Positions 18,823 to 39,899 are shown, counted from the first letter of the stretch. The stretch is DNA of 46,482 nt from Candidatus Nomurabacteria bacterium (GCA_026395965.1 JAPLXS010000006.1:184683-231164), one strand, 5' to 3'. The notes: generated by a model not told the origin, from the letters alone. A program made the numbers and translations.

Positions 18823-19005
18823 GGTTGCCTACAGGGACCGCGAGTACACTTTTTGAATCTTACAGATTCTGTACACCTTTCGCGTATTTTGAAATTAACA
18901 TTTCAAAATCCAGGCTCAAGGTTTTCAAATCTCTGACGCGACTAAAGCAGTTTAGTCGCTTAGGACCCCATATTAAAAAAGACCGCTAATGCGGCTTTTT
19001 TAATA
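18823..19005 (-). repeat. tRNA-matched structured 3' element (His copy)
   Basis: Hairpin, TGGGGTCCTA[25-nt hairpin, CTGC loop]CAGAGATTTGAA, ACCTT..AAGGTGTACAGAATCTGTAAGATTCAAA[AAGTGTACTCGCGG]TCCCTGTAGGCA. Confidence 0.85.
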
Positions 19006-19081
19006 TGGGGTGCCTACAGGGATTTGAACCCTGACTGAGAGTTCCACAAACTCTAGTGCTAACCGTTACACTATAGGCACC
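19006..19081 (-). tRNA. tRNA-His(GTG)
   Basis: Cloverleaf with G-1, anticodon arm AGAGT-TTGTGGA-ACTCT, T arm GGTTCAAATCC, encoded CCA. Confidence 0.96.
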
Positions 19082-19178
19082 ATAATTTACTCTATTTATA
19101 TATTAGAGTTATTACACATTTATACCAGAAAACTGACTATAAATCTAGGGCTAGTCTTAAGTATGATTTTATAAATAA

Positions 19179-21824
19179 TTATTCACAAGTAACCCCTTTA
19201 GGAGGAGCTATAATATTTTTTGTAGAACCAGTATTATCAATACAGAAGAATGACTGATACCCACCAACTGGAATACTTGCAGAATCATAATTATCAGAAA
19301 TTGGAATTGTAAATGACCATGCACTTGGGGTAGAGTAACAGAAACCATAATTATTTGTTATTTTTAAAACTTTATTTAACAGCTCAGAAATAGAACTAAC
19401 TGCTGTAGATGAACCTTTTGTATGACCTATTGGTGAAAATAGTGATCCAGAAACTGGGCTCATACAACTACCAATCATATTTGGTTTTTTACCGTAAACT
19501 CCTTCTGCATTATGCAAACTTGTAGCCAATTGTTTCATAGTAGATACATCATTTTTTATTTTAGTTTCATTTATTGATTTAACAAAGTCAGCAAATGGAG
19601 TTGATATTTCTGGAGTAGAAATATCATTAATTTTATTAAAATCATAATATGTTGTTTTCCATGCAAACTTTACTTGATTATCACCAATACTTTTATCTTC
19701 GAAAGATAAAATTTTTGATAGAGGAATATTTAAAACTACACTTGTTTGATAAATATTATTGTCCCCTTTCCCTACCCATACATCAAAAGACTCCACTGTG
19801 GTTGATCCAAGTATTTGATTTAATTTATCTTTATCTTCTACAGAAAGATTTAAAGTAAAATCATCGGCAATCTTATTTAGAAGCTTTTTTATCAATGGTC
19901 TTTCTGTGTTTATAGTATAGTGATATGTATCAACTCCCTTTATAACCTCTTGCCCCTTTTCTGTTATTTTTACATTGTTTATAAATTCGTCATACACGCT
20001 CATTGTTTTAGTGTCTATATATGAAGACATTCCATTTGATAAAATCTTATAAAGATTTATCTTTTTTAGTGATGCTTCCACGTCAGCTGAAAACAAAGAC
20101 GGTACCGAACTAAAATCTTTTTCATTTATTTTAATAGTTTGAGGTTCTCCGTCACTTTCTTTTATTATTTGACCTAAATCAGAAATAGTAATAAATAAAT
20201 CGGAGTTGTTATTGTTTACACCCGTAGTGATTTCTTTGCTCAATAAAGAACTTTTTACAGTTATATAATTACTAGAAAATACGCCTTTATTGTTTTGATT
20301 GATTGAGCCAAGTGTCTTTATTGAAAATGAATCTTTATCGGTTGAAGGAATAGCTTCTCCACTTATCAGGCCTGAGGAAATATTTGCAAACGACGGAGAT
20401 GATATCTCAATATTTGTTTCTGTTTTATATGATTTTAAAGATGCTAAAACTTTAGAATTATTTAATAATAAAACCTTTGGGTCTTTTTTAATAAAAGGAA
20501 TATTATTTATATTTATAAAACCACCAATGAAAGCCCATGCAATACCAGATAATATCAAAATGGACAATAACAACCATAAAATTGTTTTAAAATTTTTCTT
20601 TTTTACAACTCCATTTAATTCTTTATTTGCAGATGAAAAATCACTCTCATAAGAAGATAGCATAGCGGTCTTTGGAAGGTTATCAAATAAAAAGTTTTTT
20701 GAAGTTTCGCTAGGTACAGTAGGTGTTTCAGATTTGGGTAAATCAACACTATTTGTGGAATAAAATGGGTTTGTTGGAATTCTTGGTGCTTGATTTAAAA
20801 TAATATCGTCCCCTTCTGGTATATTCTTGGGTACATCTTGTTCTATATTTTCTTTTGGAATTTCAGTAGCTGGGTTTTGAATAATAGTATTTTCTTTTTC
20901 TCCTATAGATAATTCAGGATTTTGAACTATTACTTGGTTTAATGTTTTTTCTTCTTTAGGAGCAGTATCTTCGGATTGCATTTTTTCGATCACAGGAACT
21001 CTTCTAGGTGTCCATATTTTATTGATCTCTTTAATTGGAGACTCTATTTTAGATATCTCTGGTGCAGCAATTTCTTGTTTATATGTATCTACGGGAAATT
21101 CTTCTGGTGAAGTCTCTGGTATTATCTTAGAATTATCTGTAAGAGTATTTACAGCTTTCGCAATTTCACTCTCAGGTAATTTTGCAACAGATGGATCTGT
21201 TGCTGGTATTTCAAAATCGTAAGTTTCTACAACTTTTGGTATTTCAGCCTTAGAGTCTTCTGTTTTAGGGATATCAGCAATAGGAGTTTTAATATCTGGT
21301 ATTTCAATATCAAAAATTTCTTCTTTTGGTTTTTCAATTTTAGGAAGTTCAATATTCGTAATTTCTATTTTAGAAACATCAGCACTTGGAGTTATTGTTT
21401 TAAATGATTCAACCAATGGGGTCTCTATCTTAACAGCTTCTTCTATGGGTGTTTCCAATTTAGGGATTTCAAAAACAGCAGAATCTACTTTTGGTATTTC
21501 TACTAAAGGATTTACTATATTGTGTTTTTCAACAGTATTTTCTTCTTTTTTTACATCAAAATCAATAATATCTCCATCCATTACTGGTTCACGATATTGA
21601 TCAAGAGTTTTGTTTGTATTTTTAATATCACTATTATTGGTGATATATTTTTTAGAATCAAATATGTAAAATTCTGGTTTTAATTCAAGGTGAACACTTG
21701 AAATACCTTCATCTATATCTTCTTTGTGCCATCCTGCTTTAGTAAGTTTAGATATAATTATATCATCTGATATATTATTTTTGATTTGTTTTCTTATGTA
21801 AGAAATTAATTCAGTAGTTATCAT
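19179..21824 (-). CDS. Large single-pass membrane protein with Pro/Glu-rich linker and extracellular domain ending in a Cys-containing pilin-like module
   Basis: Repeated EIPK/ETP motifs, TM at about aa 415-437, C-terminal FCIDNTG with several Cys. Confidence 0.6.
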   Translation of the reverse strand: MITTELISYIRKQIKNNISDDIIISKLTKAGWHKEDIDEGISSVHLELKPEFYIFDSKKYITNNSDIKNTNKTLDQYREPVMDGDIIDFDVKKEENTVEKHNIVNPLVEIPKVDSAVFEIPKLETPIEEAVKIETPLVESFKTITPSADVSKIEITNIELPKIEKPKEEIFDIEIPDIKTPIADIPKTEDSKAEIPKVVETYDFEIPATDPSVAKLPESEIAKAVNTLTDNSKIIPETSPEEFPVDTYKQEIAAPEISKIESPIKEINKIWTPRRVPVIEKMQSEDTAPKEEKTLNQVIVQNPELSIGEKENTIIQNPATEIPKENIEQDVPKNIPEGDDIILNQAPRIPTNPFYSTNSVDLPKSETPTVPSETSKNFLFDNLPKTAMLSSYESDFSSANKELNGVVKKKNFKTILWLLLSILILSGIAWAFIGGFININNIPFIKKDPKVLLLNNSKVLASLKSYKTETNIEISSPSFANISSGLISGEAIPSTDKDSFSIKTLGSINQNNKGVFSSNYITVKSSLLSKEITTGVNNNNSDLFITISDLGQIIKESDGEPQTIKINEKDFSSVPSLFSADVEASLKKINLYKILSNGMSSYIDTKTMSVYDEFINNVKITEKGQEVIKGVDTYHYTINTERPLIKKLLNKIADDFTLNLSVEDKDKLNQILGSTTVESFDVWVGKGDNNIYQTSVVLNIPLSKILSFEDKSIGDNQVKFAWKTTYYDFNKINDISTPEISTPFADFVKSINETKIKNDVSTMKQLATSLHNAEGVYGKKPNMIGSCMSPVSGSLFSPIGHTKGSSTAVSSISELLNKVLKITNNYGFCYSTPSAWSFTIPISDNYDSASIPVGGYQSFFCIDNTGSTKNIIAPPKGVTCE

Positions 21825-21930
21825 ACTTTTTTATTATATCATTTTGATACATAAGCTCAAGGTATAAAAGTTGAAAATAGAAATATTATTGTGATTACGT
21901 TTCTTGAACCCGATTAAAACTTTTTAAAAA

Positions 21931-22196
21931 AGAGGACCGCGAGCACATTTCTTGGTTCTTACAGAACCTTTATAGGCTTCATATATTTTATAATTATTAA
22001 AAATAAATTATAAGAGGACCACGAGTACATATCTTGACCCCTACTGGGTCTGTACACCTTTCGTATCGTGCTTTCTTCATTACGTGCGATACACTCAAGG
22101 TTTTCAAGTCCTCTCTCGCAAAGCGCACATATGCTTTGCCCGCGCGCACAAATATATAAAATCCCAAAGTTTTAACTTCGGGATTTTATATATTTG
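21931..22196 (-). repeat. tRNA-matched structured 3' element (Leu copy, duplicated distal module)
   Basis: TGCGCGCG[hairpin]AGAGGACTTGAA, AACCTT..AAGGTGTACAGA..GGTCAAG[ATATGTACTCGTGG]TCCTCT; second CAAG[AAATGTGCTCGCGG]TCCTCT at 21931-21954. Confidence 0.85.
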
Positions 22197-22279
22197 TGCG
22201 CAGGAGAGGATTTGAACCTCCACGCCCTTGCGAGCACTGCCACCTCAAGGCAGCTTGGCTACCGTTACAACACCTGCGC
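22197..22279 (-). tRNA. tRNA-Leu(GAG)
   Basis: GCGCAGG acceptor, CTGCC-TTGAGGT-GGCAG anticodon arm, long variable arm, GGTTCAAATCC; CCA not encoded. Confidence 0.95.
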
Positions 22280-22333
22280 TTTTTTAAAATACTGCTTGAG
22301 TATAATTTATTTTTTATATTTTTTCAATAATCA

Positions 22334-22376
22334 AATAAAATACCCCTATGAGTATAACTCATAGGGGTATTTTATT
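22334..22376 (-). terminator. Intrinsic terminator after rplS
   Basis: AAAATACCCCTATGAGT-ATA-ACTCATAGGGGTATTTT inverted repeat. Confidence 0.75.
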
Positions 22377-22377
22377 T

Positions 22378-22791
22378 TTATTCTTCTGATTTAGTTTCTT
22401 CTACTACAACTTCTTTAGGTGCTTTTTTGGCAGATAGAGTTATACTCTTTAGTCTCTTCTTAACTTCCTTAACTGCTTTTGTTCTTATGAAATATAATTT
22501 ACTTCTGCGTGTCTTTGCTTTTCTTATAACTTCTATTTTATCAATATTGGGAGAATATAATGGGAAAACACGCTCTACTCCAACACTTGATGCAACTTTT
22601 CTAACTGTAAATGTTGCTCCAGATTCTGCTCCATGCTTTCGACAAAGAACTAAACCTTCAAATGCCTGTAAACGAGTTTTTCCTTTTTCTAAAATTTTAC
22701 TCCAGACACGAACAGTATCACCAGCTTTAAAATCAAGCTTTTTACGGTCTTCCTGTGAAACTGGGGTAAATTGTTTTTTCGTTATTTCCAT
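22378..22791 (-). CDS. rplS: 50S ribosomal protein L19
   Basis: [42 protein letters not shown]; start moved to MEITKK. Confidence 0.96.
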
Positions 22792-22832
22792 GGGGTTTAC
22801 TTTATCATAAATAGTCATTTTAAGCAAGAATC

Positions 22833-23630
22833 CTATTTATTATCTATATATGTCTTTATAACCTTTTTAAAATCAGCTGGTAATGGGGATTCTATTGTTT
22901 TTAACTCTCCACTTGGTAAATGGAAAGTTACTGAGTGTGCATGTAGTGCCAACCTCTTCATTCCTAGAGATAAATCCTTGGCTCCACGATATATAGGGTC
23001 GGAAACTACTGGGTGGTTTATATATCTCATATGTACTCGTATCTGATGAGTGCGACCTGTCTTAGGGTAAGCCTCTACATAAGAAAACTGGTGTTCTACA
23101 TTTTTCTTTTCTTCGGTATTTTTTGTATCTGTAAATTTATTTAAAATAATATATTCAGTAACTGCATCTCTGAGTGGTTCACGAGCACCACGACCAGCAG
23201 TAAAAGCGCGAATATCTTTTTGAGAACGACCAATCGCGACATTTATAACTCCTCTTTTACCAGTAGCAAGAGAAGCTTTAGGGTCTGAAACAAAGCCATA
23301 AACAAAGGCTCTGTAAATCTTTTTAATTTTATGACTCTGGAATTGTTCTTTCAAGAATAAAAATGTTTTTTGATTTTTAGCTATAATTAAAACTCCAGAT
23401 GTTTCTTTGTCTAAACGATGAACTATACCTGGTCTTAATATTTTTTCCTTTTTACCACCTTCCCTTTCTATCAAAAAAGGTTCTCCTACGTTTTTAAGAG
23501 TTGGGTAATTTAAAAGAATCCAGTCAGAAACTGTTTTGGTTTTTACTTTTCCGTCTGAGTGAACCATAACCCCTGCTGGCTTGTCTATGACTAAAAGATT
23601 TTTGTCTTCAAATAGAATTTTTATACTCAT
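22833..23630 (-). CDS. RluA/RluD-family RNA pseudouridine synthase
   Basis: [31 protein letters not shown]; alternative start 23636. Confidence 0.92.
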
Positions 23631-23697
23631 AAACATATCTTAGCATATAGTTGAAATATTATATATATATGCTATTATTCAATTATCCAAAAGATTT

Positions 23698-23770
23698 GCG
23701 CGATTAGCTCAGTTGGTAGAGCAACTCATTTACACTGAGAAGGTCGGGGGTTCAAGTCCCTCATCGCGCA
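23698..23770 (+). tRNA. tRNA-Val(TAC)
   Basis: GCGCGAT acceptor, AGCTCAGTTGGTAGAGC D arm, loop TTTACAC, GGTTCAAGTCC. Confidence 0.96.
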
Positions 23771-23930
23771 CAAATGAAAACAACATGCCTCGGTATGTTG
23801 TTTTCATTTGTGCGCGATGATAAAGCATAATATGCTTTATGTGAGGGACTTGAAAAACCTTGAGTATATCGCACGGAGCGAAGCGAGTACGATACGAAAG
23901 GTGTACAGAACCTGTAAGGTTCAAGTTTCT
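23771..23930 (+). repeat. tRNA-matched structured 3' element (Val copy, distal module diverged)
   Basis: Hairpin, TGCGCGAT[24-nt hairpin]GAGGGACTTGAA, AACCTTGAG..CGAAAGGTGTACAGAACCTGTAAGGTTCAAGT. Confidence 0.85.
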
Positions 23931-24025
23931 CATTTTTCACTAGAAAATTATCCGTGACCAAGTCTCTTTAAATCGTATAACCTTTGAAAAAAAATACTAT
24001 TTTGCTATACTCTCAAAAGCATCTT

Positions 24026-24193
24026 GCCCTTGTATTGCGAGATATAAAAAACCGAACATACTGTATTTGAAAATAAAATATTTGCCCTTGTAGGGTAAGA
24101 TATAAACCGAACATACCGTATTTGAAAATGAAATATTTGCCCTTGTAGGGTAAGATATAAACCGAACATACCGTATTTGAAAATGAAATATTT
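24026..24193 (+). repeat. Three tandem 55-58-bp units, each starting with the tRNA-Arg 5' end
   Basis: GCCCTTGTA..GATATAA at 24026, 24084, 24139, then the true tRNA at 24194; units 2 and 3 identical. Confidence 0.92.
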
Positions 24194-24265
24194 GCCCTTG
24201 TAGTTAAATGGATATAACTGCGGACTTCTAAGCCGTTATTGCAGGTTCGATTCCTGCCGAGGGCA
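24194..24265 (+). tRNA. tRNA-Arg(TCT)
   Basis: GCCCTTG/CGAGGGC acceptor, D loop AATGGATA, loop CTTCTAA, GCAGGTTCGATTCCTGC. Confidence 0.94.
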
Positions 24266-24530
24266 CAAACAACAAAAAACCATTATTGAAATAATGGTTT
24301 TTTGTTGTTTGTGCCCTCGAGCAAGCCAACTGCTTGGCTTGCGTGCAGGCGATTAGTAAATCGAACCGGGAGGAAATCTAAAACCTTTTCCTTGTGAGTG
24401 TACTCATGAACGAAAAAGGTGTAATGAACCTGCGAATGAGTACATTCGCCTACTGGGTAAGGTTCGATAAGCGTACTCGCGTTCCTGCCGAAACCTCTAA
24501 GTGTCTTGCGTCCAGGCGGTTATAAAATCA
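24266..24530 (+). repeat. tRNA-matched structured 3' element (Arg copy)
   Basis: TGCCCTCG[AGCAAGCCAACTGCTTGGCTTGCGT]GCAGG..AATCGAACC, AAGGTGTA, GGTTCGAT[AAGCGTACTCGCGT]TCCTGCCGA. Confidence 0.88.
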
Positions 24531-24552
24531 AAAAAAACACTTCCTTAAAGCC

Positions 24553-25149
24553 TTACTTTTTAAACTTCATAACAATCATCTTAATAAAAATTGGAATAAA
24601 AGATAAAATAATTATTGAAACAGCAATTGGGATAATGTAAATTTCTGGATCATGTATTATCCCACCTAGAAAGTAACCCAATAGCAATAACCCAGATACC
24701 CAAATAATACCCCCAAATATATTGTAAGATACAAATGAACGGTATTTCATATTTCCAATACCAGCAACAATAGGAGCAAAAGTTCTTATCATTGGAACAA
24801 AACGTGCAATTATTATGGTTGATTTGCCATATTTTTCATAAAAAAGTTCAGCATCGTATAACCTTTTTTTCTTAAAAAAGAAACCAGCATCGCGGTCAAA
24901 CAACTGTCGTCCATACTTTTTACCAGACCAATAACCAACACTGTCTCCTATAATAGCTGCAAGAATACAACCAACCAAAAGTATTTGTATATTAAAAAAA
25001 CCTTGAGAGGCAAAAATTCCTGCAGTAAAAAGAAGAGAATCACCTGGAAGAAAAAATCCAAAAAATAATCCTGTTTCAGCAAAAACAATGAGCACAATCC
25101 CTATGATTCCTACTGCTTTGATAATTAAAATTGGATCAAATATTCCCAT
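24553..25149 (-). CDS. dedA: DedA/VTT-domain membrane protein
   Basis: FAETGL..GFFLPGDSLLF.AG, GD..GY..G, ARFVP..RTFAP..AG. Confidence 0.92.
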   Translation of the reverse strand: MGIFDPILIIKAVGIIGIVLIVFAETGLFFGFFLPGDSLLFTAGIFASQGFFNIQILLVGCILAAIIGDSVGYWSGKKYGRQLFDRDAGFFFKKKRLYDAELFYEKYGKSTIIIARFVPMIRTFAPIVAGIGNMKYRSFVSYNIFGGIIWVSGLLLLGYFLGGIIHDPEIYIIPIAVSIIILSFIPIFIKMIVMKFKK

Positions 25150-25170
25150 TATTTTTATATAAATAATAAT

Positions 25171-25524
25171 CTACCTAACTTTACTTCCTGTATTTACATC
25201 TACTTCTGGAACAAGAAAAACCGGGCTTCCATCCATTCCATCAATAGCCATAAGCATGCCATTACTTTCATATCCTTTTATTTTTCTTGGTTCTAAGTTT
25301 ATTATATATAAAACTTTTTTATTTATTAAAACACTTACATCTGGATAATATAAATGAATTCCTGAAATAATTTGTCTTAGTTTTTTATCTCCATTTTCAT
25401 CTACTTCTCCAAAATCCACTTGGCAACACAAAAGCTTTTCAGTATCTGCAATAGGTTCAACCTCTCTTATAGTTCCAACTCTTATATCCATTTTATTAAA
25501 TTCTTCGTAAGTTACATATTCCAT
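25171..25524 (-). CDS. tRNA-binding OB-fold protein (Trbp111/CsaA/MetRS C-terminal-like)
   Basis: F.KMDIRVG.I, KLL...VDFG, RQIISGI, NLEPRKIKG.ESNGML. Confidence 0.88.
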   Translation of the reverse strand: MEYVTYEEFNKMDIRVGTIREVEPIADTEKLLCCQVDFGEVDENGDKKLRQIISGIHLYYPDVSVLINKKVLYIINLEPRKIKGYESNGMLMAIDGMDGSPVFLVPEVDVNTGSKVR

Positions 25525-25537
25525 ATTTTTATTTTAT

Positions 25538-26239: not shown

Positions 26240-26245
26240 ATTAGT

Positions 26246-26503: not shown

Positions 26504-26590
26504 GGAGGTGTGGCTGAGAGGTTGAAGGCACCTGTCTTGAAAACAGGAGACCGTTTACGCGGTCCGTGAGTTCGAATCTCACCGCCTCCG
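26504..26590 (+). tRNA. tRNA-Ser(TGA)
   Basis: GGAGGTG acceptor, CCTGT-CTTGAAA-ACAGG, long variable arm, GTTCGAATC, G discriminator. Confidence 0.96.
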
Positions 26591-26791
26591 CAAATAAGAA
26601 AAATCCCCAATTTTGATTGGGGATTTTTCTTATTTGCGGAGGCGAAGACGTAAACTGCTTCACGTCTGAGTGAGATTCTAACAGCGGAATCATATTTTTC
26701 TAGCAAGAAAAATAGATGAGCTGGTGCCCAGACAAAACTTTTTGGCGAAAAAGTTTTAGTCGTGGGCGAAAAGTGTACTCACGGTCTCACC
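26591..26791 (+). repeat. tRNA-matched structured 3' element (Ser copy)
   Basis: CGGAGGCG[AAGACGTAAACTGCTTCACGTCTGA]GTGAGATTC, then CGAA[AAGTGTACTCACGG]TCTCACC. Confidence 0.85.
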
Positions 26792-32774: not shown

Positions 32775-32785
32775 TATATACATTT

Positions 32786-32815: not shown

Positions 32816-32833
32816 GTGTTATTATAATAATAT

Positions 32834-33979: not shown

Positions 33980-34061
33980 TCTCTTGGGTTAATGGTTCAA
34001 TATTAATCAAAATAAATGTTTTAGTCTTTCTTTATAAACAGAGTGTTGATATAATAAAAAT

Positions 34062-34538
34062 ATGGATGAAATAAAAATAGACACAATAGAATGGTCCGCT
34101 CCTGAATACTCACACAAAGAACGTAGTAACGATTGGTTTTGGTCTCTTGGACTTATCACGATTATTGCAGCTGGAATTGCTTTCTGGTTCAATAGCAATA
34201 TATTTGCAATTTTTATTTTAATATCTGGTGGTACTTTAATTATGTTTACTTTTAGGCACCCCAATGATGTAACTTACATCATTGAAACAAAAGGGCTCAC
34301 TATGGGAAAAGATCTTCATATTTGGAAAAGTATAAAAAGTTTCAATATCAAAAATATAGATACTGAACCTTATGCAAAAATACTAATAGAAACAAGTAAT
34401 TACATTTTACCAATATACACTATTCCCTTCCCAAAAGAATTGGAATCTCAAATAAAAGAAAATCTACTTAAAATAACACCTCGTTCAGAAATAGATGAAT
34501 CAAAATCAATGGTATTTATGGAAAAGTTGGGGTTCTAA
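34062..34538 (+). CDS. Conserved hypothetical two-TM protein
   Basis: W.APEY...ER..DWFW followed by two TMs. Confidence 0.65.
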   Translation: MDEIKIDTIEWSAPEYSHKERSNDWFWSLGLITIIAAGIAFWFNSNIFAIFILISGGTLIMFTFRHPNDVTYIIETKGLTMGKDLHIWKSIKSFNIKNIDTEPYAKILIETSNYILPIYTIPFPKELESQIKENLLKITPRSEIDESKSMVFMEKLGF

Positions 34539-34544
34539 TAGAAA

Positions 34545-34577
34545 TATAAAAAGCCTAGGTAAACCTAAGCTTTTTAT
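34545..34577. terminator. Bidirectional terminator, near-identical to the hairpin at 36023-36056
   Basis: ATAAAAAGCCTAGG-TAAA-CCTAAGCTTTTTAT. Confidence 0.7.
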
Positions 34578-34585
34578 TATATTTA

Positions 34586-35743
34586 TTAGAACTGACTAAT
34601 TATTTTTTCTAGAACTTTAATTCTAAATTTAATTATATTTTTAGAATTAATTGATAGATAATTATCAGTTTCTTTAAAAACTTCCCTTAGGAATGAGAGT
34701 TCTGAATATTTTTTTAAATATATTTTATACTTTTCATCTCCTTCCATATTTGATATGTTTTGATTTAATTCATTAATAGACTCTTCTATCTTTAAAAGAT
34801 GCCCATCCTCAGTTTCTTTATGGGTTGAATGAGACATATCTTCAAATTCTTTCTCAAGTTTATTAATTTTATTTTCATATTCTTTGCTAATTTTAACTTT
34901 ATAATTCTTATAGAGACTTTCATATAATTGTTCTTTATTTAGAGTTTGGTTTATTGTTTGATTTTCCAAATAAAAAGCCTGAGAAAGAGAACTCATGGTA
35001 GAGTAAAAACACTGGTCTAGATAAGCATTATATTTATCTTTACCAACCTTTAGTATAGTTTGTATTTTATTACCTAGACTAGCCTTATATTTTCCCCCAG
35101 AAAATACTGGGGATTCTTGTAATATTTTTCTTTTTTCATCAATACTTTTATTGTACCATTCGGATAGATTTTTAATTCCATTATTTTTCAAAGCATCTAA
35201 GGGAGATAATATCTCTATCAATTTATTGTTATTTTCAGATTCTTTTTTTAGGCATTCTATAACTTCTGGTTTAAGATTCAATAATTCTTCTGGGTATTTA
35301 TGTTCAGAATATTCATAAAATTTTTTAAAATCTGAATTTTCCATACCCTCTGCTAAACTCTTTGATTCCCCAGGGTAAAGTATTTTTGATTTTTCTATAT
35401 AGTTAGGATACTGTATTAATCTCATAAAAAAATCATAATTTCTATCTAATTCTAGAGATGCGTTGTCATTATCTTTATTAAAATCTTCTGTTATTTTATT
35501 TTTTAAATTTTCAACATAATTATTGTCGAAATGGTCAAAATTATATGGTATAGCATCTAAGTTAACCAAAATAGACATTTTTTCTTCAAATGTTTTCTGA
35601 GACCAATCTTCAAAAGTTTCAACATTGTTTTCTTTTACAAAAGATATTTTGTCTTCTAGTTTTACAGATAGATTATTTTCAGTTTCTTTTTTGCTAGCAG
35701 AATTATCTACTTCAGTTTTATTAAAAATGTTAAATTTTTCCAT
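34586..35743 (-). CDS. Hypothetical protein (K/E/N-rich, helical)
   Basis: 385-aa ORF, TGGTATAAT 6 nt upstream; no motif recognised. Confidence 0.6.
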   Translation of the reverse strand: MEKFNIFNKTEVDNSASKKETENNLSVKLEDKISFVKENNVETFEDWSQKTFEEKMSILVNLDAIPYNFDHFDNNYVENLKNKITEDFNKDNDNASLELDRNYDFFMRLIQYPNYIEKSKILYPGESKSLAEGMENSDFKKFYEYSEHKYPEELLNLKPEVIECLKKESENNNKLIEILSPLDALKNNGIKNLSEWYNKSIDEKRKILQESPVFSGGKYKASLGNKIQTILKVGKDKYNAYLDQCFYSTMSSLSQAFYLENQTINQTLNKEQLYESLYKNYKVKISKEYENKINKLEKEFEDMSHSTHKETEDGHLLKIEESINELNQNISNMEGDEKYKIYLKKYSELSFLREVFKETDNYLSINSKNIIKFRIKVLEKIISQF

Positions 35744-35763
35744 ATGTTTATTATACCATAGAT

Positions 35764-36056
35764 ACAGGGCCGCGAGTACATATATCGCCTATTACATAGG
35801 CAGGTACTTTTCGCTCTGGTTAACACCAGAGAACGAAAAGTCTTTCGATTTCCTCCCGGTTCGATTTACTAATCGCCTGCACGCAAGACATATAGAGGTC
35901 TCGGTAGGGTAATCTTCCTCTACGAGGACAGTATGCCTTTTCGTTCCGATTAACATCGGAAAACGAAAAGCCCTTCGATTCCTGCACGCAAGCCAAGCAA
36001 TTGGCTTGCTCGGGATCACAATATAAAAAAGCTTAGGTTTACCTAAGCTTTTTTAT
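35764..36056 (-). repeat. tRNA-matched structured 3' element (two tandem units) behind a truncated tRNA
   Basis: TGATCCCG[AGCAAGCCAATTGCTTGGCTTGCGT]GCAGGAATCGAA; 41-nt identity to 24338-24378; CGAT[ATATGTACTCGCGG]CCCTG. Confidence 0.85.
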
Positions 36057-36082
36057 CGTCCTATCCATTGAACGACGGGACC
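36057..36082 (-). pseudogene. Truncated tRNA (5' acceptor strand + D arm only), probably tRNA-Arg
   Basis: GGTCCCG-TC-GTTC-AATGGATA-GGAC-G; same D loop as tRNA-Arg(TCT); anticodon arm, T arm and 3' strand absent. Confidence 0.75.
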
Positions 36083-36204
36083 ATATTATCACGTTATAAA
36101 TCTACACCAAATAGACCATAATCGCAAGCTCATTGTGTTTTTGTATTTGTGATACACTATAAACATGTCGAAGTTTATAAACTTTAATTAAGTAATTTAT
36201 TAAA

Positions 36205-36498
36205 ATGGAAAATAATTGTTGTGAGAATAAAGAAAAAATGAATTGTGGTCATGGGGTAAATAGTTGTTGTATGAAAAAATGCCATATGATGAAAAAATTA
36301 TTGATTCTTGTTTTTATTATTATCGCTTTCTGTATGGGAACACAGTGGGGAGAAATGAGATCTTACTCTCGTGGTTCTAACTATGGAAGAGGAATGATGT
36401 GGGGTAATGGTTTTGAAGCAAGATTTGATAAAACAATAGCTCCGATAGATGAAGCAAAAGTAGAATCAAATAAAGAAGTGGTAGCACCAAAACAATAA
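36205..36498 (+). CDS. Hypothetical protein with Cys/His/Met-rich N-terminus and one TM
   Basis: NNCCE..NCGHG.NSCCMKKCH, TM, GMMWG. Confidence 0.6.
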   Translation: MENNCCENKEKMNCGHGVNSCCMKKCHMMKKLLILVFIIIAFCMGTQWGEMRSYSRGSNYGRGMMWGNGFEARFDKTIAPIDEAKVESNKEVVAPKQ

Positions 36499-36499
36499 A

Positions 36500-36541
36500 T
36501 AGATAAAAATAAAACCCCGTTTGGGGTTTTATTTTTATCTA
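36500..36541. terminator. Bidirectional terminator
   Basis: AGATAAAAATAAAACCCC-GTTT-GGGGTTTTATTTTTATCT. Confidence 0.75.
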
Positions 36542-36817
36542 TTTAACTTCTGACCAATCTTTTACCTCTTTGTATGTAGCTTCTCCACAAATAGTTTTAC
36601 CAGTAAACTGGTTTAATAGGAATGGAACGCCTCCACACATGTTTTCCCCTATGTCTAATTCTTCCATCATCTTATCGTTTTCTTTATTGTGCCAAATTTC
36701 TATTTTTTTAATATTAATACCCTCTTCGATGAGTTTGTCTACACTTTTTTCTGTGACCATACAATGTGGGCATTCTAAACCATAGAAAAACAATAAATCT
36801 TTTGTTTCTTTAGTCAT
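36539..36817 (-). CDS. Thioredoxin/glutaredoxin-like protein
   Basis: FYG.ECPHC, E.WHN, CGGVPF (cis-Pro). Confidence 0.82.
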   Translation of the reverse strand: MTKETKDLLFFYGLECPHCMVTEKSVDKLIEEGINIKKIEIWHNKENDKMMEELDIGENMCGGVPFLLNQFTGKTICGEATYKEVKDWSEVK

Positions 36818-36894
36818 AGATTAATTATACTAAAAATAAAAAGGCGTACAACCTCTGGGCTCTCTTGAGGTTGGACGTCTTTTTATTTTGGTTT

Positions 36895-37149
36895 TTATTT
36901 TGTTATCTTTGAAAGTCTAGCCTTTTTACGGGAAGCAGTATTCTTTTTTATTACTCCTCTCTTTGCAGCTTTGTCTATAACACTGTAAGCAGATGGTAAT
37001 AATTTCTTTGCTTCAACTTTGTTCTTTTCTTTAAGAAACTTTTCAATTTTCTTAACAGTTTCTTTTATGTTTTTCTTATTACGGTCATTTGTTGCTTTTT
37101 TAACAAGTGATCCCTTTAGGGCTTTCTTTGCTGATTTTGTAATTGGCAT
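36895..37149 (-). CDS. rpsT: 30S ribosomal protein S20
   Basis: PITKSAKKA, IDKAAKRGVIKKNTASRKKARL. Confidence 0.95.
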   Translation of the reverse strand: MPITKSAKKALKGSLVKKATNDRNKKNIKETVKKIEKFLKEKNKVEAKKLLPSAYSVIDKAAKRGVIKKNTASRKKARLSKITK

Positions 37150-37332
37150 ATTATATTTAATTATGAATTAATAATTACTAATTAAGAATTTATTTTTCAA
37201 TTTTAGCCGAGACACCAGCCCCTCAATGAGGAATCCCCAACCGGGAGATAATGTTGAATACAAGTATATTAACAGAAAATCTATATTATGTAAATGGGTG
37301 TAAATTTTAAATAAAAAAAGTATAATATATTT

Positions 37333-37911
37333 ATGATTGCAAGAATAGAAGGCATTATCGTCCATATGGACACAAAATTTATAGTTGTAGATGTTTCTGG
37401 TGTTGGATATAAATTATCTGTAACAGCGGACACTCTTTTATCTTCAGGTTTAGGAGACCATGCTTCATTTTGGGTACATACAGCTGTACGAGAAAACTCC
37501 ATAGATTTATATGGGTTTAAAACTATAAATGAAATGTCTTTTTTTGAATTACTCCTTGATGTTTCTGGTATTGGTCCAAGATCAGCATTATCTATACTAG
37601 CAATCGCCCCTATTGATACACTCAAGAGAGCTATAGCTATGGGAGATATGGGATATTTAAATAAAGTTTCTGGTATTGGCAAAAAAACTGCTGAAAAAAT
37701 AATTATTGAACTACGAGACAAATTGAAAGATTATAAAAACGACAACGACACCCCAGGACTACTTCGAGATGAAAGTGATATTATCGAAGCTCTAAAATCT
37801 CTAGGTTACTCTCAAAATGAGGCTCGCGAAGCAATGAAACAAGTCCCCTCTACAATAGAAGGTACAAATGCTCGCATAAAAGAAGCTCTTCGTGTTCTTA
37901 GTAGTCGTTAA
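37333..37911 (+). CDS. ruvA: Holliday junction branch migration protein RuvA
   Basis: VSGVGY, VRE...LYGF, VSGIGPRSAL, GIGKKTAEKIIIEL, AL.SLGY. Confidence 0.95.
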   Translation: MIARIEGIIVHMDTKFIVVDVSGVGYKLSVTADTLLSSGLGDHASFWVHTAVRENSIDLYGFKTINEMSFFELLLDVSGIGPRSALSILAIAPIDTLKRAIAMGDMGYLNKVSGIGKKTAEKIIIELRDKLKDYKNDNDTPGLLRDESDIIEALKSLGYSQNEAREAMKQVPSTIEGTNARIKEALRVLSSR

Positions 37912-37934
37912 TTTTAATTCTTAATTATTTTATT

Positions 37935-38867
37935 ATGCCTGAGCTTCCAGAGGTCACAACAACAGTAAATGGACTACAAAAAGTTTTACCAGGATTTAAA
38001 ATTATTTCTGTTTGGACAGACCTTGCTAAAAAGAATCAAACAATAAAACAATTCAAAGATACTATTAAAAATGATATTTTTTTTAATAATTTTAAAAAGA
38101 AAATAATTGGAGAGGAGGTATTAAATGCAAAAAGAAGTGCAAAAAATATCCTTATAAATACTACTTCTGGTCATACCATACTTATACACTTAAAGATGAC
38201 TGGCCATTTATTGTACGGTGAATATGTTTTTGATAAAAAAGAAAATAAATGGTATCCAGATAAAAATGAGCGGGCTGCTCTATTTGATCCGTACAATAGA
38301 TTTATACATGTTGTTTTTGCCTTTTCAAATGGTAAACATCTAGTTTTTTGTGATTCACGTAAGTTTGGAAAAGTAACACTAATACCAACATCTGATTTAA
38401 ACAACACTGTTCACTTAAAAAATATTGGACCTGAACCTCTTGAAAAATCTTTTAGTTTTTTAAGATTTAAAGATAGATTACTTTTGAAACCTGATTGGAA
38501 AATAAAAACTGCACTAATGGATCAATCTGTAATTGCTGGTATTGGAAATATCTATTCAGATGAGATGCTTTGGCTTTCTAGTATCCACCCAGAATCTAAA
38601 CCAAAAAGTATCCCCAATGCATCATTATTAAAACTATATGATGGAATGAAAGAAGTATTAACAAAAGGAATCGATTTTGGTGGTGACTCAATGTCTGATT
38701 ATAGAAACATACATGGTCTTCGGGGTGATTTTCAAAATCATCATAATGTATACCAAAAGAAAAATACAAAATGTGTGAAAAGGGGTTGTAAAGGTGTTAT
38801 ACTAAGAAAAGTTGTAAATGGTCGCAGTGCTCATTATTGTGATACACATCAAAAATTATTTAATTAA
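37935..38867 (+). CDS. mutM: Formamidopyrimidine-DNA glycosylase
   Basis: PELPEV, HLKMTG, D.RKFG, MDQ..IAGIGNIYSDE, C-terminal Zn finger (C4 to C3H variant). Confidence 0.93.
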   Translation: MPELPEVTTTVNGLQKVLPGFKIISVWTDLAKKNQTIKQFKDTIKNDIFFNNFKKKIIGEEVLNAKRSAKNILINTTSGHTILIHLKMTGHLLYGEYVFDKKENKWYPDKNERAALFDPYNRFIHVVFAFSNGKHLVFCDSRKFGKVTLIPTSDLNNTVHLKNIGPEPLEKSFSFLRFKDRLLLKPDWKIKTALMDQSVIAGIGNIYSDEMLWLSSIHPESKPKSIPNASLLKLYDGMKEVLTKGIDFGGDSMSDYRNIHGLRGDFQNHHNVYQKKNTKCVKRGCKGVILRKVVNGRSAHYCDTHQKLFN

Positions 38868-38879
38868 AATTAAAAAATT

Positions 38880-39092
38880 ATGACTGAAAAAAAACTTAAA
38901 GCAAAAAATAATATATATACTCGTGGTGAAATAAACTTTGGGATTGAAATTCTTATATTTGTAGTTATTATTTTTATACTTTGGATTCTAGCTGGTGGTG
39001 CAAAAAAAGAAGCTCCATCAAGCCCTATTTTAGTACCTGAAACTGTTCATATTTTACCAAAAACTAATAGTGGCTATGGTCCAAACAATTAA
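38880..39092 (+). CDS. Small single-TM hypothetical protein
   Basis: 70 aa, hydrophobic aa 19-38, 12 nt after mutM. Confidence 0.55.
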   Translation: MTEKKLKAKNNIYTRGEINFGIEILIFVVIIFILWILAGGAKKEAPSSPILVPETVHILPKTNSGYGPNN

Positions 39093-39568
39093 TGTTTTAA
39101 AATACCGAACAAAGCTATTCCGCAAGCTACAGAAACATTTAAAGACTCTTTTTTCCCATACATTGGTATTTGAGCGATAATATCGCATTTGTCTAATATT
39201 TTTTTATCTAAACCAAGAACTTCTGGCCCCATGACAATGGCAACTTTTTCTAGTTTTTTTACCTTTCTATAATCAATAGATCTTTTGTCTTGTTCGATAG
39301 CAACAATAGTATAACCATCTTTTTTAAGATTGTTTAGTAAAGTAATTAGGCTTTTTTTATATTCCCAAGGAATCCATGTTTCTGCACCAAGGGCGCTTTT
39401 TGCTATGTCTTTTTGTATTCTACCAAAGTTATCTGTGGGTCTTGGAGTATAACCTGTTAAATATATTTTTGATATTCCTACAGCATCAGCTGTTCTAAAC
39501 ATAGCTCCAATGTTTAGTGCTGATCTTATATCTGGAAGTATTAAAATAGAATTTGTTTGTTTTTTCAT
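39089..39568 (-). CDS. TrmH/SpoU-family RNA methyltransferase
   Basis: NIGAMFRTADA.G, G.E..GL, IPM.G.KESLNVSVA. Confidence 0.9.
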   Translation of the reverse strand: MKKQTNSILILPDIRSALNIGAMFRTADAVGISKIYLTGYTPRPTDNFGRIQKDIAKSALGAETWIPWEYKKSLITLLNNLKKDGYTIVAIEQDKRSIDYRKVKKLEKVAIVMGPEVLGLDKKILDKCDIIAQIPMYGKKESLNVSVACGIALFGILKH

Positions 39569-39634
39569 AATAGTTATTAAGGAAGTTTATATGATGATGG
39601 TTTTTTTATCAAGGAAGAATACGGGCACGACAGG

Positions 39635-39899
39635 CTCGGTAGGACAGGCAGTAGCCTTATTGACTACTATTAAATAAGTAGGAAACGTGAGTACACTTTT
39701 GGTCACTCTCGTGTATTAAGAAGATCTCTCGGTAGGACCGGCAGTAGCCTTATTGAATCTTACTGATTCTGTACACCCATTCGTTTCGGTTAGCACCGAA
39801 AAACGAATGGGTCTTCAATTCCTACACGTGAATGAAGCAGTTCATTCACTCAAGAGGACAATTATAAAAACCCTCAGTAAACTGGGGTTTTTATAATTG
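39635..39899 (-). repeat. tRNA-matched structured 3' element (Lys copy, distal module triplicated)
   Basis: TCCTCTTG[AGTGAATGAACTGCTTCATTCACGT]GTAGGAATTGAA, GGTGTACAGAATCAGTAAGATTCAAT[AAGGCTACTGCCGG]TCCTACCGAGAG plus two more interrupted TCCTAC copies. Confidence 0.88.

Follow-up and report, generated by a model that had tools for sequence, protein, structure and literature searches.

In IS200/IS605 elements and their non-autonomous derivatives, the ends recognize target and cleavage sites through pairing to a guide that adjoins a hairpin, and integron attC and CTX-phage attP are folded single-stranded attachment sites. Genomic islands and prophages, as the parts of the literature used here describe them, integrate into tRNA and tmRNA genes with the help of an integrase, leaving attL and attR and a displaced 3' fragment of the tRNA (Islander, PMC4383910; PMC9897764). 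REP/REPIN-RAYT sequences and other miniature palindromic repeats are described from bacteria (sections of PMC3733652 and PMC3184786). The IS110 bridge RNA, in the sections of PMC11208160 used here, is a structured non-coding scaffold with variable segments that match the target. Replication template switching is described as creating and maintaining hairpins (PMC8794818, in part). Here we describe tRNA-matched mini-insertions behind tRNA genes, which look like tRNA-specific mobile DNA of a type not described before.

The window, which is the whole analysed stretch of 46,482 nucleotides, comes from a 0.70 Mb genome of the Patescibacteria (Nomurabacteria/Paceibacteria-like), within the candidate phyla radiation. 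An earlier note on the window had reported that every tRNA is followed by the same structured architecture. This architecture is real and reaches far beyond the window: it is found at 24 of the 37 tRNA genes in the genome and at the tmRNA gene. The word "every" holds within the window but not genome-wide.

Moving away from the tRNA, an element begins with X. Next come two segments antisense to the tRNA, the first to positions 74-66 and the second to 65-54, with a conserved 25-nt hairpin between them, then a structured module that can be exchanged, and finally a direct repeat. X is a terminator hairpin (A-tract, G+C stem, T-tract) that begins directly at the tRNA end; its stem is lengthened by pairing of the tRNA's acceptor 3' strand with the antisense copy. 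Reading of the DNA agrees with the note's description of an AT-rich hairpin running into the tRNA. The antisense copy (74/72-66 and 65-54) forms a split arm, 19-21 nt in its two halves together, and the hairpin fills the break at 65/66. We call the tRNA's own 3' end S1 and the distal direct repeat, a sense copy of about 57/60-74, S2; a 14-mer may or may not precede S2. Elements are about 150-270 bp and non-coding, with no integrase and no ORF. The copies in the window are:

18821..19005 (-): His element, behind tRNA-His 19006-19080, with a match to model R1. X 18968-19005 (terminator-like site 18995-18982); anti-acceptor 18961-18967; 25-nt hairpin 18936-18960; anti-T 18924-18935; module 18852-18923; 14-mer 18838-18851; sense copy of 60-7x 18821-18837.
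21930..22195 (-): Leu element, behind tRNA-Leu(gag) 22196-22279. X 22146-22195; anti-acceptor 22139-22145; 24-nt hairpin 22115-22138; anti-T 22103-22114; then the module; 14-mer 22019-22032 with tcctctt 22012-22018; second 14-mer 21937-21950 with tcctctt 21930-21936.
23772..23933 (+): Val element, behind tRNA-Val(tac) 23698-23771, with a weak R1 match. X 23772-23811; anti-acceptor 23812-23818; 24-nt hairpin 23819-23842; anti-T 23843-23854; module 23855-23917; no 14-mer; decayed, uninterrupted sense copy of 52-67 at 23918-23933.
24267..24495 (+): Arg element, behind tRNA-Arg(tct) 24194-24266, with an R1 match. X 24267-24310; anti-acceptor 24311-24319; 25-nt hairpin 24320-24344; anti-T 24345-24349 and 24375-24381, with 25 nt inserted between them; module 24382-24468, itself holding a nested insertion (about 24431-24459); 14-mer 24469-24482; sense copy 24483-24495 (3/13 differ).
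26592..26791 (+): Ser element, behind tRNA-Ser(tga) 26504-26591, with an R1 match. X 26592-26637; anti-acceptor 26638-26644; 25-nt hairpin 26645-26669; anti-T 26670-26681; "type C" module 26682-26770; 14-mer 26771-26784; sense tctcacc 26785-26791.
35757..36081 (-): orphan, a truncated tRNA 5' fragment (about 36056-36081) followed by X and arms. 25-nt hairpin with TTGC loop; R1 match 35964-36017 (-); a second, Arg-like partial element continues down to about 35757.
39632..39898 (-): Lys element array, behind tRNA-Lys(ttt) 39899-39972, with an R1 match. X 39858-39898; anti-acceptor 39851-39857; 25-nt hairpin 39826-39850; anti-T 39814-39825; module 39752-39813; 14-mer variant 39738-39751; sense copy 39725-39737; extra 14-mer and sense-copy units at 39685-39698 with 39678-39684 and at 39645-39658 with 39632-39644.

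ARAGORN and Rfam confirm the six tRNAs at these positions. Parts of the His, Leu, Val, Ser, and Lys elements were placed by reading the DNA together with a script. The Arg parts were read by eye; the 25-nt insertion splits anti-T, and the script misplaced the arms. The second 14-mer and tcctctt of the Leu element imply that its last module is repeated. As for mis-assembly, a Logan contig from run X1, which may be the source sample, matches 18600-24105 with zero differences, and fragments of a second sample (X2) that align to parts of the region show a few differences.

Several details of the earlier description stand, including the truncated seventh copy, the split at 65/66, and the length of the inserted hairpin (25 nt in His, Arg, Ser, Lys, and the orphan); it is 24 nt in both Leu and Val. 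The proposed bracket around the variable stem, AACCTT.../...AAGGTGTAC, is present in His, Leu, Val, and Arg, but Ser and Lys have other module types. The 14-mer (AAGYGTACTCRCGG or a variant) does abut a sense copy starting at position 60 in His, Leu, Arg, Ser, and Lys, but it is optional in the family, where it precedes 13 of 49 sense copies. The sense copy, described as being of the T arm, is there, but it is usually a scar-like repeat of 57/60-74. Val, which was thought to lack one, has ggttcaagtttctcat at 23918-23933, 14/16 identical to its positions 52-67.

A sense copy of 60-73 with at most 3 mismatches is found in 49 of 83 elements (27 perfect). The exact sense run through position 60 is mostly 15-19 nt and begins 0-6 nt upstream of 60. 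Fresh copies have a full S2, with the discriminator and, where the gene encodes it, CCA. Among 58 metagenome copies with a tRNA upstream, S2 was found in 31, 42-254 nt away, and not in 27. One suggestion was that the element is a tRNA-like mimic or decoy. Anti-acceptor, hairpin, anti-T-stem, and S2 would then form an acceptor/T minihelix, which might undergo processing or titrate proteins or toxins that bind tRNA. The full S2 of fresh copies would suit this, and 65/66, where the hairpin branches off, is also the point at which a tRNA's D/anticodon domain departs from the acceptor-T stack. But in this genome the S2 needed for a self-contained acceptor and T stem is mostly decayed (perfect in 1/17), a module of 50-190 nt replaces the T-loop, and Infernal gives element regions no tRNA score. 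We found no direct support for the mimic, which we regard as most unlikely.

The element is found in 36 of 41 related genomes and in 13 of the 17 genera of the order, and in only 1 of 150 genomes sampled elsewhere in the phylum; this outlier has the identical layout with a different module. The targets span 29 anticodon types plus tmRNA, and genomes have from 0 to 32 model matches. Module motifs lie mostly within 600 nt behind tRNA or tmRNA genes or in orphan elements; a few matches to short motifs stand alone elsewhere. No Rfam family scored above its gathering threshold (sub-threshold matches were to generic long hairpins, resembling miRNA precursors, and sRNAs), and we found no description of such tRNA-3'-end elements in the literature, in agreement with the earlier view that the family has no name.

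At the sequence level, the block from X to the module is present at some orthologous tRNA genes and absent from others, with the original flank resuming after S2. Such blocks are also seen as tandems and remnants. The 22 orthologous loci of tRNA-Gly(ccc) comprise 11 canonical filled sites, 4 with a remnant or another type, and 7 that are empty, and tandem copies are found at this tRNA in L048 and L054. The flank gtgtcaagtgttgcaatattta follows S2 in the filled locus of L060 and follows the tRNA end in the empty locus of L057, which implies that the elements are insertions and that a 15-18-nt repeat of the tRNA end forms their boundary. In this pair X belongs to the insertion and was not pre-existing, and the empty Gly loci have no terminator of their own. 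At 27 tRNA-His loci we found 10 canonical elements, 2 without the hairpin, 1 remnant, 2 with X only, and 12 with nothing. The 5' ends of tRNAs are locally duplicated too.

Modules are also swapped between elements of different tRNAs: in one genome, the His and Arg(gcg) elements have differing arms and a 63-nt module that is 100% identical. Exchange tracts end within T-loop-derived sequences. Given the empty, filled, tandem, and remnant loci, the common flank, the variable copy number, module exchange, and the tmRNA target, the earlier suggestion of a non-autonomous tRNA-targeting element has held up best. We give about an even chance that these are a new, lineage-restricted family of non-autonomous insertion elements, specific to tRNA and tmRNA 3' ends, whose arms pair with the target.

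Insertion might not require dedicated machinery. Palindromes could grow from tRNA terminators by intrastrand replication template switching, as neutral or mildly selfish by-products, and spread by ectopic gene conversion via T-loop sequence, unequal crossing-over between S1 and S2, and uptake of relatives' DNA. In 3 of 37 cases the repeat reaches into X or the flank, which unequal crossing-over or homology-based events fit equally well. The ends of the exchange tracts, the 5'-end duplications, and the unbroken complementarity from tRNA end through X to arm also agree with this scenario, as do arms that are exact 3'-strand complements and perfect without S2, which templated correction predicts; what we cite of PMC8794818 reports that template switching both creates and maintains hairpins. 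But in the Gly pair X arrives with the insertion, and the conserved 25-nt hairpin sits exactly at 65/66 between tRNA-specific flanks, with a spacing from anti-acceptor to anti-T of exactly 32 nt in 71 of 83 tRNA-element pairs. Since both flanks vary from tRNA to tRNA, microhomology cannot put the hairpin at this site. Also, the hairpin loop AACTGCTT does not vary within an entire order, suggesting that a partner binds it. We consider this scenario rather improbable.

As had been proposed, the arms track the adjacent tRNA: across tRNA-element pairs in which neither arm was allowed more than 2 mismatches, they average 0.75 mismatches over 12 variable nucleotides to their own tRNA and 6.85 to other tRNA types. 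At non-Watson-Crick tRNA pairs, the arms are the complement of the 3' strand in 49 of 56 cases and match the 5' strand in 1, so they complement the 3' strand rather than copy the 5' strand. The 9-bp hairpin varies yet stays paired, as was noted from the window: 98.6% of cells are paired, nearly all Watson-Crick, with compensatory changes at 7 of 9 pairs. None of 500 shuffles matched it on paired cells, cells changed on both sides, or covariation; 9/500 did so on pairs with changes on both sides and 32/500 on further pair types. The tRNA of L060 carries a derived A3:U70 pair, whose T is common to S2, but the arm retains G. Arms average 1.2 mismatches with a perfect S2 and 0.8 with a decayed one (p = 0.055). 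Both observations fit an arm that was carried in by the element.

In the genome of the window, arms are still perfect where S2 has decayed, so the arm-tRNA hairpin could have a cellular function instead of a role in mobility. If the element were a cis-acting RNA of the tRNA unit, X would terminate transcription, and upon read-through the antisense arm would invade the tRNA 3' half or pair with S2; it might be a switch for processing, quality control, or termination, or an RNase P or RNase III site, and spread because it is useful. Besides the persistence of matched arms, X folds better in the tRNA-sense RNA (54 vs 13 of 69, with 2 ties), its G-U pairs favor that strand (31 vs 14), arm mismatches lean the same way (G-U type, 21 vs 11), the read-through RNA of tRNA and element is predicted to form a branched helix of roughly 45 bp, and empty Gly loci lack a terminator. 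On the other hand, the element is dispensable at orthologous loci, its tandem arrays and remnants resemble selfish DNA, and a plain terminator would suffice without sequestering the tRNA. The near-exclusive Watson-Crick pairing of the hairpin also speaks against an RNA. The modules are strongly structured (mean z -3.6; 33/39 below -2), but their stems show no strand preference (G-U pairs 126/2092 on the + strand, 204/2225 on the - strand); this neutral result counts against the insertion-element reading as well. We found nothing that directly supports the processing switch suggested earlier, and a cis-acting RNA seems unlikely, if worth keeping in mind.

Another candidate is a trans-acting guide RNA, with hairpin and module as a protein scaffold and the split arm as a programmable guide to the tRNA gene (recombination, as with bridge RNA) or to the tRNA (modification or cleavage at the acceptor/T-stem junction). 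Its appeal is the constant scaffold with segments matched to 29 tRNA types, the strong structure of the modules, and the order guide-hairpin-guide, which would give a three-way junction on a contiguous target. But each guide adjoins its own target, which trans action does not need, a terminator lies just upstream, no promoter of its own is evident, modules lack a strand signal, and no Rfam family reached its gathering score. Nor did a search of this genome for a partner enzyme find a reverse transcriptase, IS110, TnpB, or Cas1 match. We consider a guide RNA very unlikely. The genome has one tyrosine recombinase, and two large serine recombinases that are located in islands. A palindromic repeat of its own, unlike the elements, flanks the lone Y1/HUH transposase gene, and this gene was not found in five element-bearing genomes.

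For the insertion elements, we infer that they would insert site-specifically after, or within, the segment of the cognate tRNA gene from T-loop to 3' end. The split arm might recognize its target by pairing with the sense strand of the gene; equivalently, folding of the arm and S copy could reproduce the target as a branched duplex, in the manner of folded single-stranded att sites. The invariant hairpin may be the handle for a putative trans-acting protein. S1 and S2 would behave like attL and attR or like a target duplication, and recombination between them could yield empty sites or tandem arrays. Once inserted, the element would provide the tRNA's intrinsic terminator, in line with the better folding of X in tRNA-sense RNA; hairpin-templated correction or selection may keep the arm matched while S2 decays. 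The missing partner enzyme counts against insertion elements, as do the absence of terminal inverted repeats and the fact that no cargo-carrying or autonomous copy, excised circle, or junction read was seen. Matched arms exist for at least 29 tRNA types; their origin is not accounted for, which we also count against insertion elements.

Among known systems, the analogy to IS110 bridge RNA extends to the structured scaffold and the variable segments that match the insertion target. In contrast to what the cited sections describe, we found no DEDD recombinase, adjacent ORF, or donor-binding loop. Matches are also longer here, and the two halves of the arm are both antisense to one strand. With no DEDD recombinase and with arms of this kind, the bridge-RNA analogy drawn earlier fails. 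IS200/IS605 ends are comparable in topology (target or cleavage site, spacer, guide, hairpin), in insertion 3' of the recognized sequence, and in a hairpin-centered and plausibly single-stranded biology. But their guide is 4 nt, whereas here it is 19-21 nt and split by a hairpin; here each element has one conserved hairpin and a direct target repeat, and the Y1 enzyme does not co-occur. As in folded attachment sites, a hairpin with extrahelical features may rebuild a duplex recombination target, with varying sequence and conserved structure; the apparent target here is a tRNA gene, with no integron integrase context and no cassette ORF.

Template switching, as far as the cited account goes, also gives perfect inverted copies of adjacent sequence and apparent compensatory change without selection, but it does not account for the direct repeat or for a hairpin and modules common to unrelated tRNA loci. 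The REP/REPIN sequences in the cited sections are likewise short, non-coding intergenic sequences that form hairpins and often resemble terminators; a modular build, restriction to particular lineages, varying copy number, and presumed mobilization in trans are further points in common. Unlike the elements here, whose conserved hairpin has target-specific flanks, REPs are not described there as matched to the adjoining gene, and the REP that belongs to this genome's RAYT-like gene (AGACGTYSRACGTCT) is a different one. Finally, tRNA islands, in the portions of the literature cited, also target the 3' part of tRNA and tmRNA genes, leave the tRNA intact, accrete in tandem at one tRNA, and have their far end marked by a displaced direct copy from the T-loop region to the tRNA end. 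The elements here differ from islands so described in being 150-270 bp without integrase or ORF, in a repeat of only 15-18 nt, in an internal inverted target copy split by a conserved hairpin, and in their presence, with matched sequences, at most isoacceptors of one genome.

The source genome (G000), at 97% completeness, spans 698,616 bp over 12 contigs, and the window corresponds to G000:C7:184683-231164. ARAGORN and Rfam identify six tRNAs in the window, and an earlier note on this DNA had described a common layout behind each of them. By reading the DNA and by locating the parts with scripts, we found this layout in all six. A hairpin with a G+C stem between an A tract and a T tract, which we will call X, begins directly at the tRNA end. 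After X come an antisense copy of the acceptor 3' strand (positions 74/72-66), a splitting hairpin (24-25 nt), an antisense copy of positions 65-54, and a structured module. (We will refer to the two tRNA-matched segments as the arms, or as anti-acceptor and anti-T.) At the far end is a sense copy of the tRNA that begins at position 60, and 5 of the 6 elements have a 14-mer of the type AAGYGTACTCRCGG just before this copy. We will call the distal sense copy S2 and the tRNA's own 3' end S1. The element behind tRNA-Val had been described as lacking the sense copy; the split copy is indeed absent, but an uninterrupted, decayed one lies at 23918-23933. The window also contains a seventh element:

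~35757-36081, seventh copy, behind a truncated tRNA fragment

The elements are 150-270 bp, which is too small for any ORF. X has the form of an intrinsic (Rho-independent) terminator, with a G+C-rich stem and, immediately after it, a run of T on the same strand as the upstream gene; a terminator scanner calls only the X of tRNA-His, since in the others it counts the T run into a longer stem, and X was otherwise read from the DNA. Mis-assembly as the source of the elements was rejected by comparison with assembled contigs from the region, leaving aside the contig joints near 23922-24348 and 24268-24468, whose sides are <30 letters.

The hairpin that splits the arms is conserved as a structure. 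In an alignment of 16 copies, 98.6% of the cells in the 9-bp stem of the 25-nt hairpin are paired, both sides have changed at 7 of the 9 pairs, and just one G-U pair was counted. None of 500 shuffles equaled the alignment in paired cells, in both-side-changed cells, or in covariation, while 9 of 500 did so when pairs changed on both sides were counted, and 32 of 500 for further pair types. By the first three measures, the pairing of the varying stems is beyond chance.

We found matched arms at 83 of the 159 distinct tRNAs in the fetched loci, which are biased towards matches to a covariance model that we built from the alignment. The arm halves are exactly 32 nt apart in 71 of the 83, and the elements represent 29 anticodon types. 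At the 12 variable arm positions, the arms have on average 0.75 mismatches to their own tRNA and 6.85 to other tRNA types, for pairs that were preselected at ≤2 mismatches per arm. When copies were instead selected by the hairpin motif, without regard to the arms, 63 of 86 had ≤3 mismatches in 19. As the earlier note had stated, the variable arm segments match the adjacent tRNA. G-U pairs give 56 informative positions at which the complement of the 3' strand is not the sequence of the tRNA's own 5' strand; the arm has the 3'-strand complement at 49 of these, the 5' strand at 1, and neither at 6. This implies that the element is not a decayed tRNA duplicate and rules out the arm as a duplicate of the tRNA's 5' half. 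Also, the arms mirror the gene sequence and not the mature tRNA: they include CCA only where it is encoded.

Although every tRNA in the window has an element, this does not hold across the genome, where 24 of 37 tRNA genes have one (Arg-tct and Gly-tcc were assessed by eye, since their anti-T segment is interrupted by an insertion). An element also follows the tmRNA gene. Most of the tRNAs that lack elements have another tRNA directly 3' or adjoin an island; the others are Ser-act, Thr-cgt, Arg-tcg, Arg-cct, Gly-gcc, Ile-gat, and Cys-gca. In the Arg, Gly-tcc, His (locus L332), and tmRNA-array copies, this segment is interrupted by a CGATTAGTAAATCG... insertion.

The covariance model matches 24 copies in the source genome, and 36 of 41 genomes (including this one) are positive, with 0-32 matches per genome. 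Besides the source genome, these are 23 of the 24 other members of its genus and 12 of 16 other genera of the order. We found the element in only 1 of 150 other genomes drawn from across the phylum, using stricter filters and 38 scored candidates per genome. In this outlier, G146, tRNA-Pro and two tRNA-Ser genes are followed by elements of the same layout whose module is G+C-rich and 140 nt long. Viral contigs had no matches to the hairpin pattern. The metagenome scan gave at least 80 loci with at least 83 hairpins, and none of the matches listed (at least 80 loci) is a cargo-bearing or autonomous copy. Among the 58 listed metagenome copies with a tRNA upstream, S2 was found in 31, at 42-254 nt past the arm, and was not found in 27; as no S2 lies more than 254 nt away in the listed copies, no autonomous or cargo version was seen. 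In a fixed register, 18 of the 58 have arms with ≤3 mismatches; many copies are shifted by 1 nt (as seen by eye in 14 cases), so this figure is too low. The original observation is confirmed, and it extends to an order-wide family.

In the relatives, many matches to the model lie within ~200 nt of a contig end (for instance, G014:C23:167, G014:C42:86, G020:C24:92, G020:C22:118, G019:C32:88, and G018:C44:90). Thus, the elements are a probable cause of breaks at tRNA genes in metagenome assemblies.

Orthologous loci with and without the element indicate what was inserted. At 22 orthologous tRNA-Gly(ccc) loci of the genus, 11 have a canonical element, 7 are empty, and 4 have remnants or another type; at the empty loci, the next gene's promoter or ORF is directly 3' of the tRNA. 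In the filled locus L060, the tRNA ends with ...tctcgtatcctgcac; next come the block that starts with X and ends with the 14-mer, a second tctcgtatcctgcac, and then aagtgtcaagtgttgcaatattta. In the empty locus L057, ...tctcgtatcccgcac is followed by aggtgtcaagtgttgcaatattta. This comparison identifies the inserted block as X through the module, bounded by S1 and S2. The loci L048 and L054 contain two tandem elements, with a full repeat at the end of each. Similarly, the 27 tRNA-His loci comprise 10 with a canonical element, 2 with an element that lacks the hairpin, 1 with a truncated remnant, 2 in which X stands alone, and 12 with nothing.

A copy of positions 60-73 with ≤3 mismatches is present in 49 of the 83 elements, and 27 of these copies are perfect. 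The exact repeat from position 60 is mostly 15-19 nt and ends at the tRNA end plus 1-4 nt, while the identity starts 0-6 nt upstream of position 60. In 3 of 37 cases, as in similar cases among the listed metagenome copies, the repeat continues into X, which is consistent with tandem duplication of whole units. Given the insertion polymorphism, the direct repeats, and the matched arms, these may well be a new family of non-autonomous insertion elements that are specific to the 3' ends of tRNA and tmRNA genes and whose arms pair with the target; of the readings considered, this one has the most support.

Other duplications of tRNA ends also occur. In the source genome, no canonical element follows tRNA-Ile(gat) (G000:C8:75992-76064, - strand, outside the window). 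Its positions ~47-74 recur 52 nt downstream as an exact 28-nt repeat, which is another kind of tRNA-end duplication. At locus L050 (G055), tRNA-Gly(ccc) has A3 opposite C70, a mismatch in the acceptor stem, with a decayed element remnant downstream; the 3' end of this tRNA may have been swapped during an integration event. The window has a 55-nt tandem repeat upstream of tRNA-Arg(tct) (24049-24203, + strand; 2.8 copies that are 98% alike) and a 73-nt one upstream of tRNA-Lys(ttt) (39955-40123; 2.3 copies). Each unit holds the first 10-18 nt of the tRNA and the promoter-like TTGAAA ... ATATTT, so the 5' ends of tRNAs are locally duplicated too. Similar repeated 5' ends are found upstream of tRNA-Met, Thr, and Asp on contig C2.

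Modules of different types are set between the same kinds of arms. The types are AAGCTTTTC...GAAAAGGTGTAC; AGACTTTTC...GAAAAGTACC; CAGCGGAATC...; those with the end ...GTGACCGAT; and the 140-nt type of G146. Compared to shuffled sequences, the modules fold stably (mean z of -3.6, with 33 of 39 below -2). In one relative (G009), the elements of tRNA-His and tRNA-Arg(gcg) have a 63-nt module in common that is 100% identical, while the hairpins show compensatory differences and each element has arms specific to its own tRNA. The exchanged tract is bounded by AATCGAA ... CGAT, which is derived from the T loop. Module motifs are mostly ≤600 nt behind tRNA or tmRNA genes or in orphan elements, with a few isolated short-motif matches elsewhere, so we rejected the idea that the modules are independent dispersed transposons.

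The hairpin loops of the elements contain small nested insertions. One of ~25-30 nt (CGAATGAGYACATTCGCCTACTGGG-like) is in a hairpin loop at window 24431-24459 (+ strand); similar insertions are in the tRNA-Tyr element of the source genome and in the hairpin loop at G000:C2:647-725. These are different hairpins in several elements.

Of 17 copies in the source genome that were selected by their hairpin, 9 have perfect arms and 3 more reflect register artefacts. The best sense copy matches perfectly in 1 of the 17; in 8 of them it is no better than chance (≥4 of 12). Where S1 and S2 differ, the arm agrees with S1 at 29 of 29 positions, in a set of arms that had been selected on S1. Because the arms match while S2 has decayed, S2 appears to be a scar, and the arm would be maintained by selection or by hairpin-templated correction. 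In a test for selection that set the decay of arms against that of sense copies in all genomes, the two have 0.171 and 0.185 mismatches per nt, respectively. Arms have a mean of 1.2 mismatches if S2 is perfect and 0.8 if it is not (p = 0.055, not significant), and the tRNA of L060 has a derived A3:U70 pair that is present in S2 and absent from the arm. This trend and the L060 arm fit an arm that was brought in by the element. Alternatively, the elements could be passive products of template switching and gene conversion. Template switching, as presented in excerpts of PMC8794818, can account for perfect arms, but it cannot account for a shared hairpin between tRNA-specific flanks, and we consider this origin rather unlikely.

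The split arm might be a true nucleic-acid guide, and each element a self-contained programmable insertion unit whose arms can be re-templated to new tRNAs. We view this as possible but doubtful. The 25-nt hairpin would bind a protein, and its flanks of 7-9 and 12 nt would pair with the target tRNA gene on its sense strand, directing a putative enzyme (possibly a housekeeping or very small one) to insert the element directly behind the paired segment. If true, this would be a new mechanism of DNA- or RNA-guided integration, unrelated to CRISPR, OMEGA, or IS110.

X folds better as tRNA-sense RNA in 54 of 69 cases, versus 13 for the other strand (2 ties), with 31 versus 14 G-U pairs, as expected for a tRNA terminator. 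The module has no strand preference, and the strand test on the 25-nt hairpin was uninformative. Arm mismatches of the G-U type number 21 on the sense strand versus 11. In the predicted read-through RNA, the 3' half of the tRNA and the arm form a branched helix of ~45 bp. It is unlikely that the element has a cis-acting RNA function, and very unlikely that it encodes a trans-acting guide RNA. That it is a tRNA mimic seems highly improbable.

To look for an enzyme behind a family of insertion elements, we searched the source genome for named families, one by one. There were no matches to PF01548 for an IS110-like (DEDD) recombinase, in a search whose control was positive in 6 of 14 genomes, and no matches to PF00078 for reverse transcriptase. 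Neither TnpB/Cas12f-like families nor Cas1 families had a match in this genome. A casposon-like origin was rejected given the absence of Cas1, and so was a tRNA-primed retroelement, as there is no reverse transcriptase and the arms mirror the gene. The recombination-type genes are a weak rve match on contig C9, one tyrosine recombinase at G000:C7:276841-277362, and two large serine recombinases. There is also a Y1/HUH gene, outside the window:

G000:C7:115154-115816 (L078:1270-1935), - strand, Y1/HUH (RAYT-like) protein of 221 aa with an HFH motif and YVNTNY

This is the only such gene in the genome (31 bits to PF01797; below the cut-off of NF047646), and the protein is present in 33 of 41 relatives. 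The proposed co-occurrence with HUH genes breaks down in G025, G028, G029, G030, and G035, which bear elements and in which Y1 was not found; G029 has 14 matches to the model along with perfect repeats. The Y1 gene is bordered on both sides by a different palindrome, AGACGTYSRACGTCT (AGACGT(CCA/TTGG)ACGTCT), which has 14 copies in the source genome, 5 of them around this gene. A RAYT gene flanked by its own REP is the usual picture, and the Y1 gene and its palindrome are a separate REP-RAYT-like pair. Together, the gene's own palindrome and the missing co-occurrence rule out Y1 as the partner of the elements.

Two stretches outside the window have displaced tRNA-end copies. At G000:C8:152927-166551, tRNA-Glu(ttc) is ~12.4 kb from exact copies of its positions 60-73, behind which element copies follow, and this stretch contains a large serine recombinase gene at 162125-162562. 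At G000:C2:28682-39800, an exact second copy of positions 60-74 is directly behind tRNA-Gln(ctg), followed by sequence like the start of the Glu stretch (CACGTG..CACGAG); the second large serine recombinase is ~10 kb on. The two stretches are probably related integrated islands.

If the elements are mobile and target-matched, they would be a natural insertion system with a tiny constant scaffold and exchangeable, target-complementary arms that works on at least 29 tRNA types and on tmRNA. Their host genomes are 0.4-1 Mb with almost no classical transposases. Two questions would then be testable: whether the target is recognized by pairing or through a folded mimic, and which enzyme acts. The elements also provide the terminators for most tRNA genes in the order, and they generate tRNA-like fragments that can confuse annotation. 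Gain and loss of elements is a fast marker of strain-level evolution in Nomurabacteria-like CPR bacteria.

No Rfam family fits the elements. Within the window, only the tRNAs and one AdoCbl riboswitch (695-830, - strand; 50.4 bits versus a gathering threshold of 50) reach the gathering threshold, and searches with E up to 1 (10 loci) or up to 0.1 (3 loci) gave only generic long-hairpin matches far below threshold. Hammerhead and other small ribozymes were rejected for lack of an Rfam match. Full-text literature searches found no description of such elements, which agrees with the earlier statement that they belong to no named family.

DDE-derived MITEs have terminal inverted repeats and a short target duplication of fixed length, whereas the ends of these elements (an A/T-rich hairpin versus ...CGAT or the 14-mer) are not inverted repeats and the repeat varies, from 15 to 19 nt and more. 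With regard to integron attC and other folded att sites, the general PF00589 search gave the single tyrosine recombinase, and we saw no cassette ORFs between copies, except for one of 173 aa. This ORF (G000:C8:53509-54030, or L006:946-1467; opposite strand; outside the window) is flanked by the tRNA-Glu(ctc) element on one side and, on the other, by a further Glu-matched element with its own copy of the tRNA 3' end before it. IS200/IS605, PATE, and REP-RAYT elements have similar subterminal hairpins at both ends and do not duplicate their target, while our elements have one conserved hairpin and, in 49 of 83, a direct target repeat of 15-18 nt. The ends of IS200/IS605 elements are alike in having a hairpin with a neighboring guide, but a Y1 enzyme that co-occurs with the elements, and the other defining features, were not found here.

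In the loops of bridge RNAs, guide segments pair with opposite target strands around a short core. In contrast, both arm halves of our elements are antisense to the sense strand, and they are contiguous across 65/66 on the same strand. The elements do resemble bridge RNA, as it appears in excerpts of PMC11208160, in combining a constant scaffold with target-matched segments, but the defining enzyme and features of IS110 were not found. The interruptions at 59/60 and 65/66 give a stagger of 6 nt, which might be likened to the overlap region of a tyrosine recombinase, but the 14-mer is optional. Integrase-borne islands encode an integrase, whereas the elements are without one and are hundreds of times smaller. 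Like these islands, the elements combine an intact tRNA with a displaced tRNA 3' fragment as a direct repeat, and both the tRNA-end repeat and the use of tmRNA are traits of such islands in excerpts of PMC4383910 and PMC9897764.
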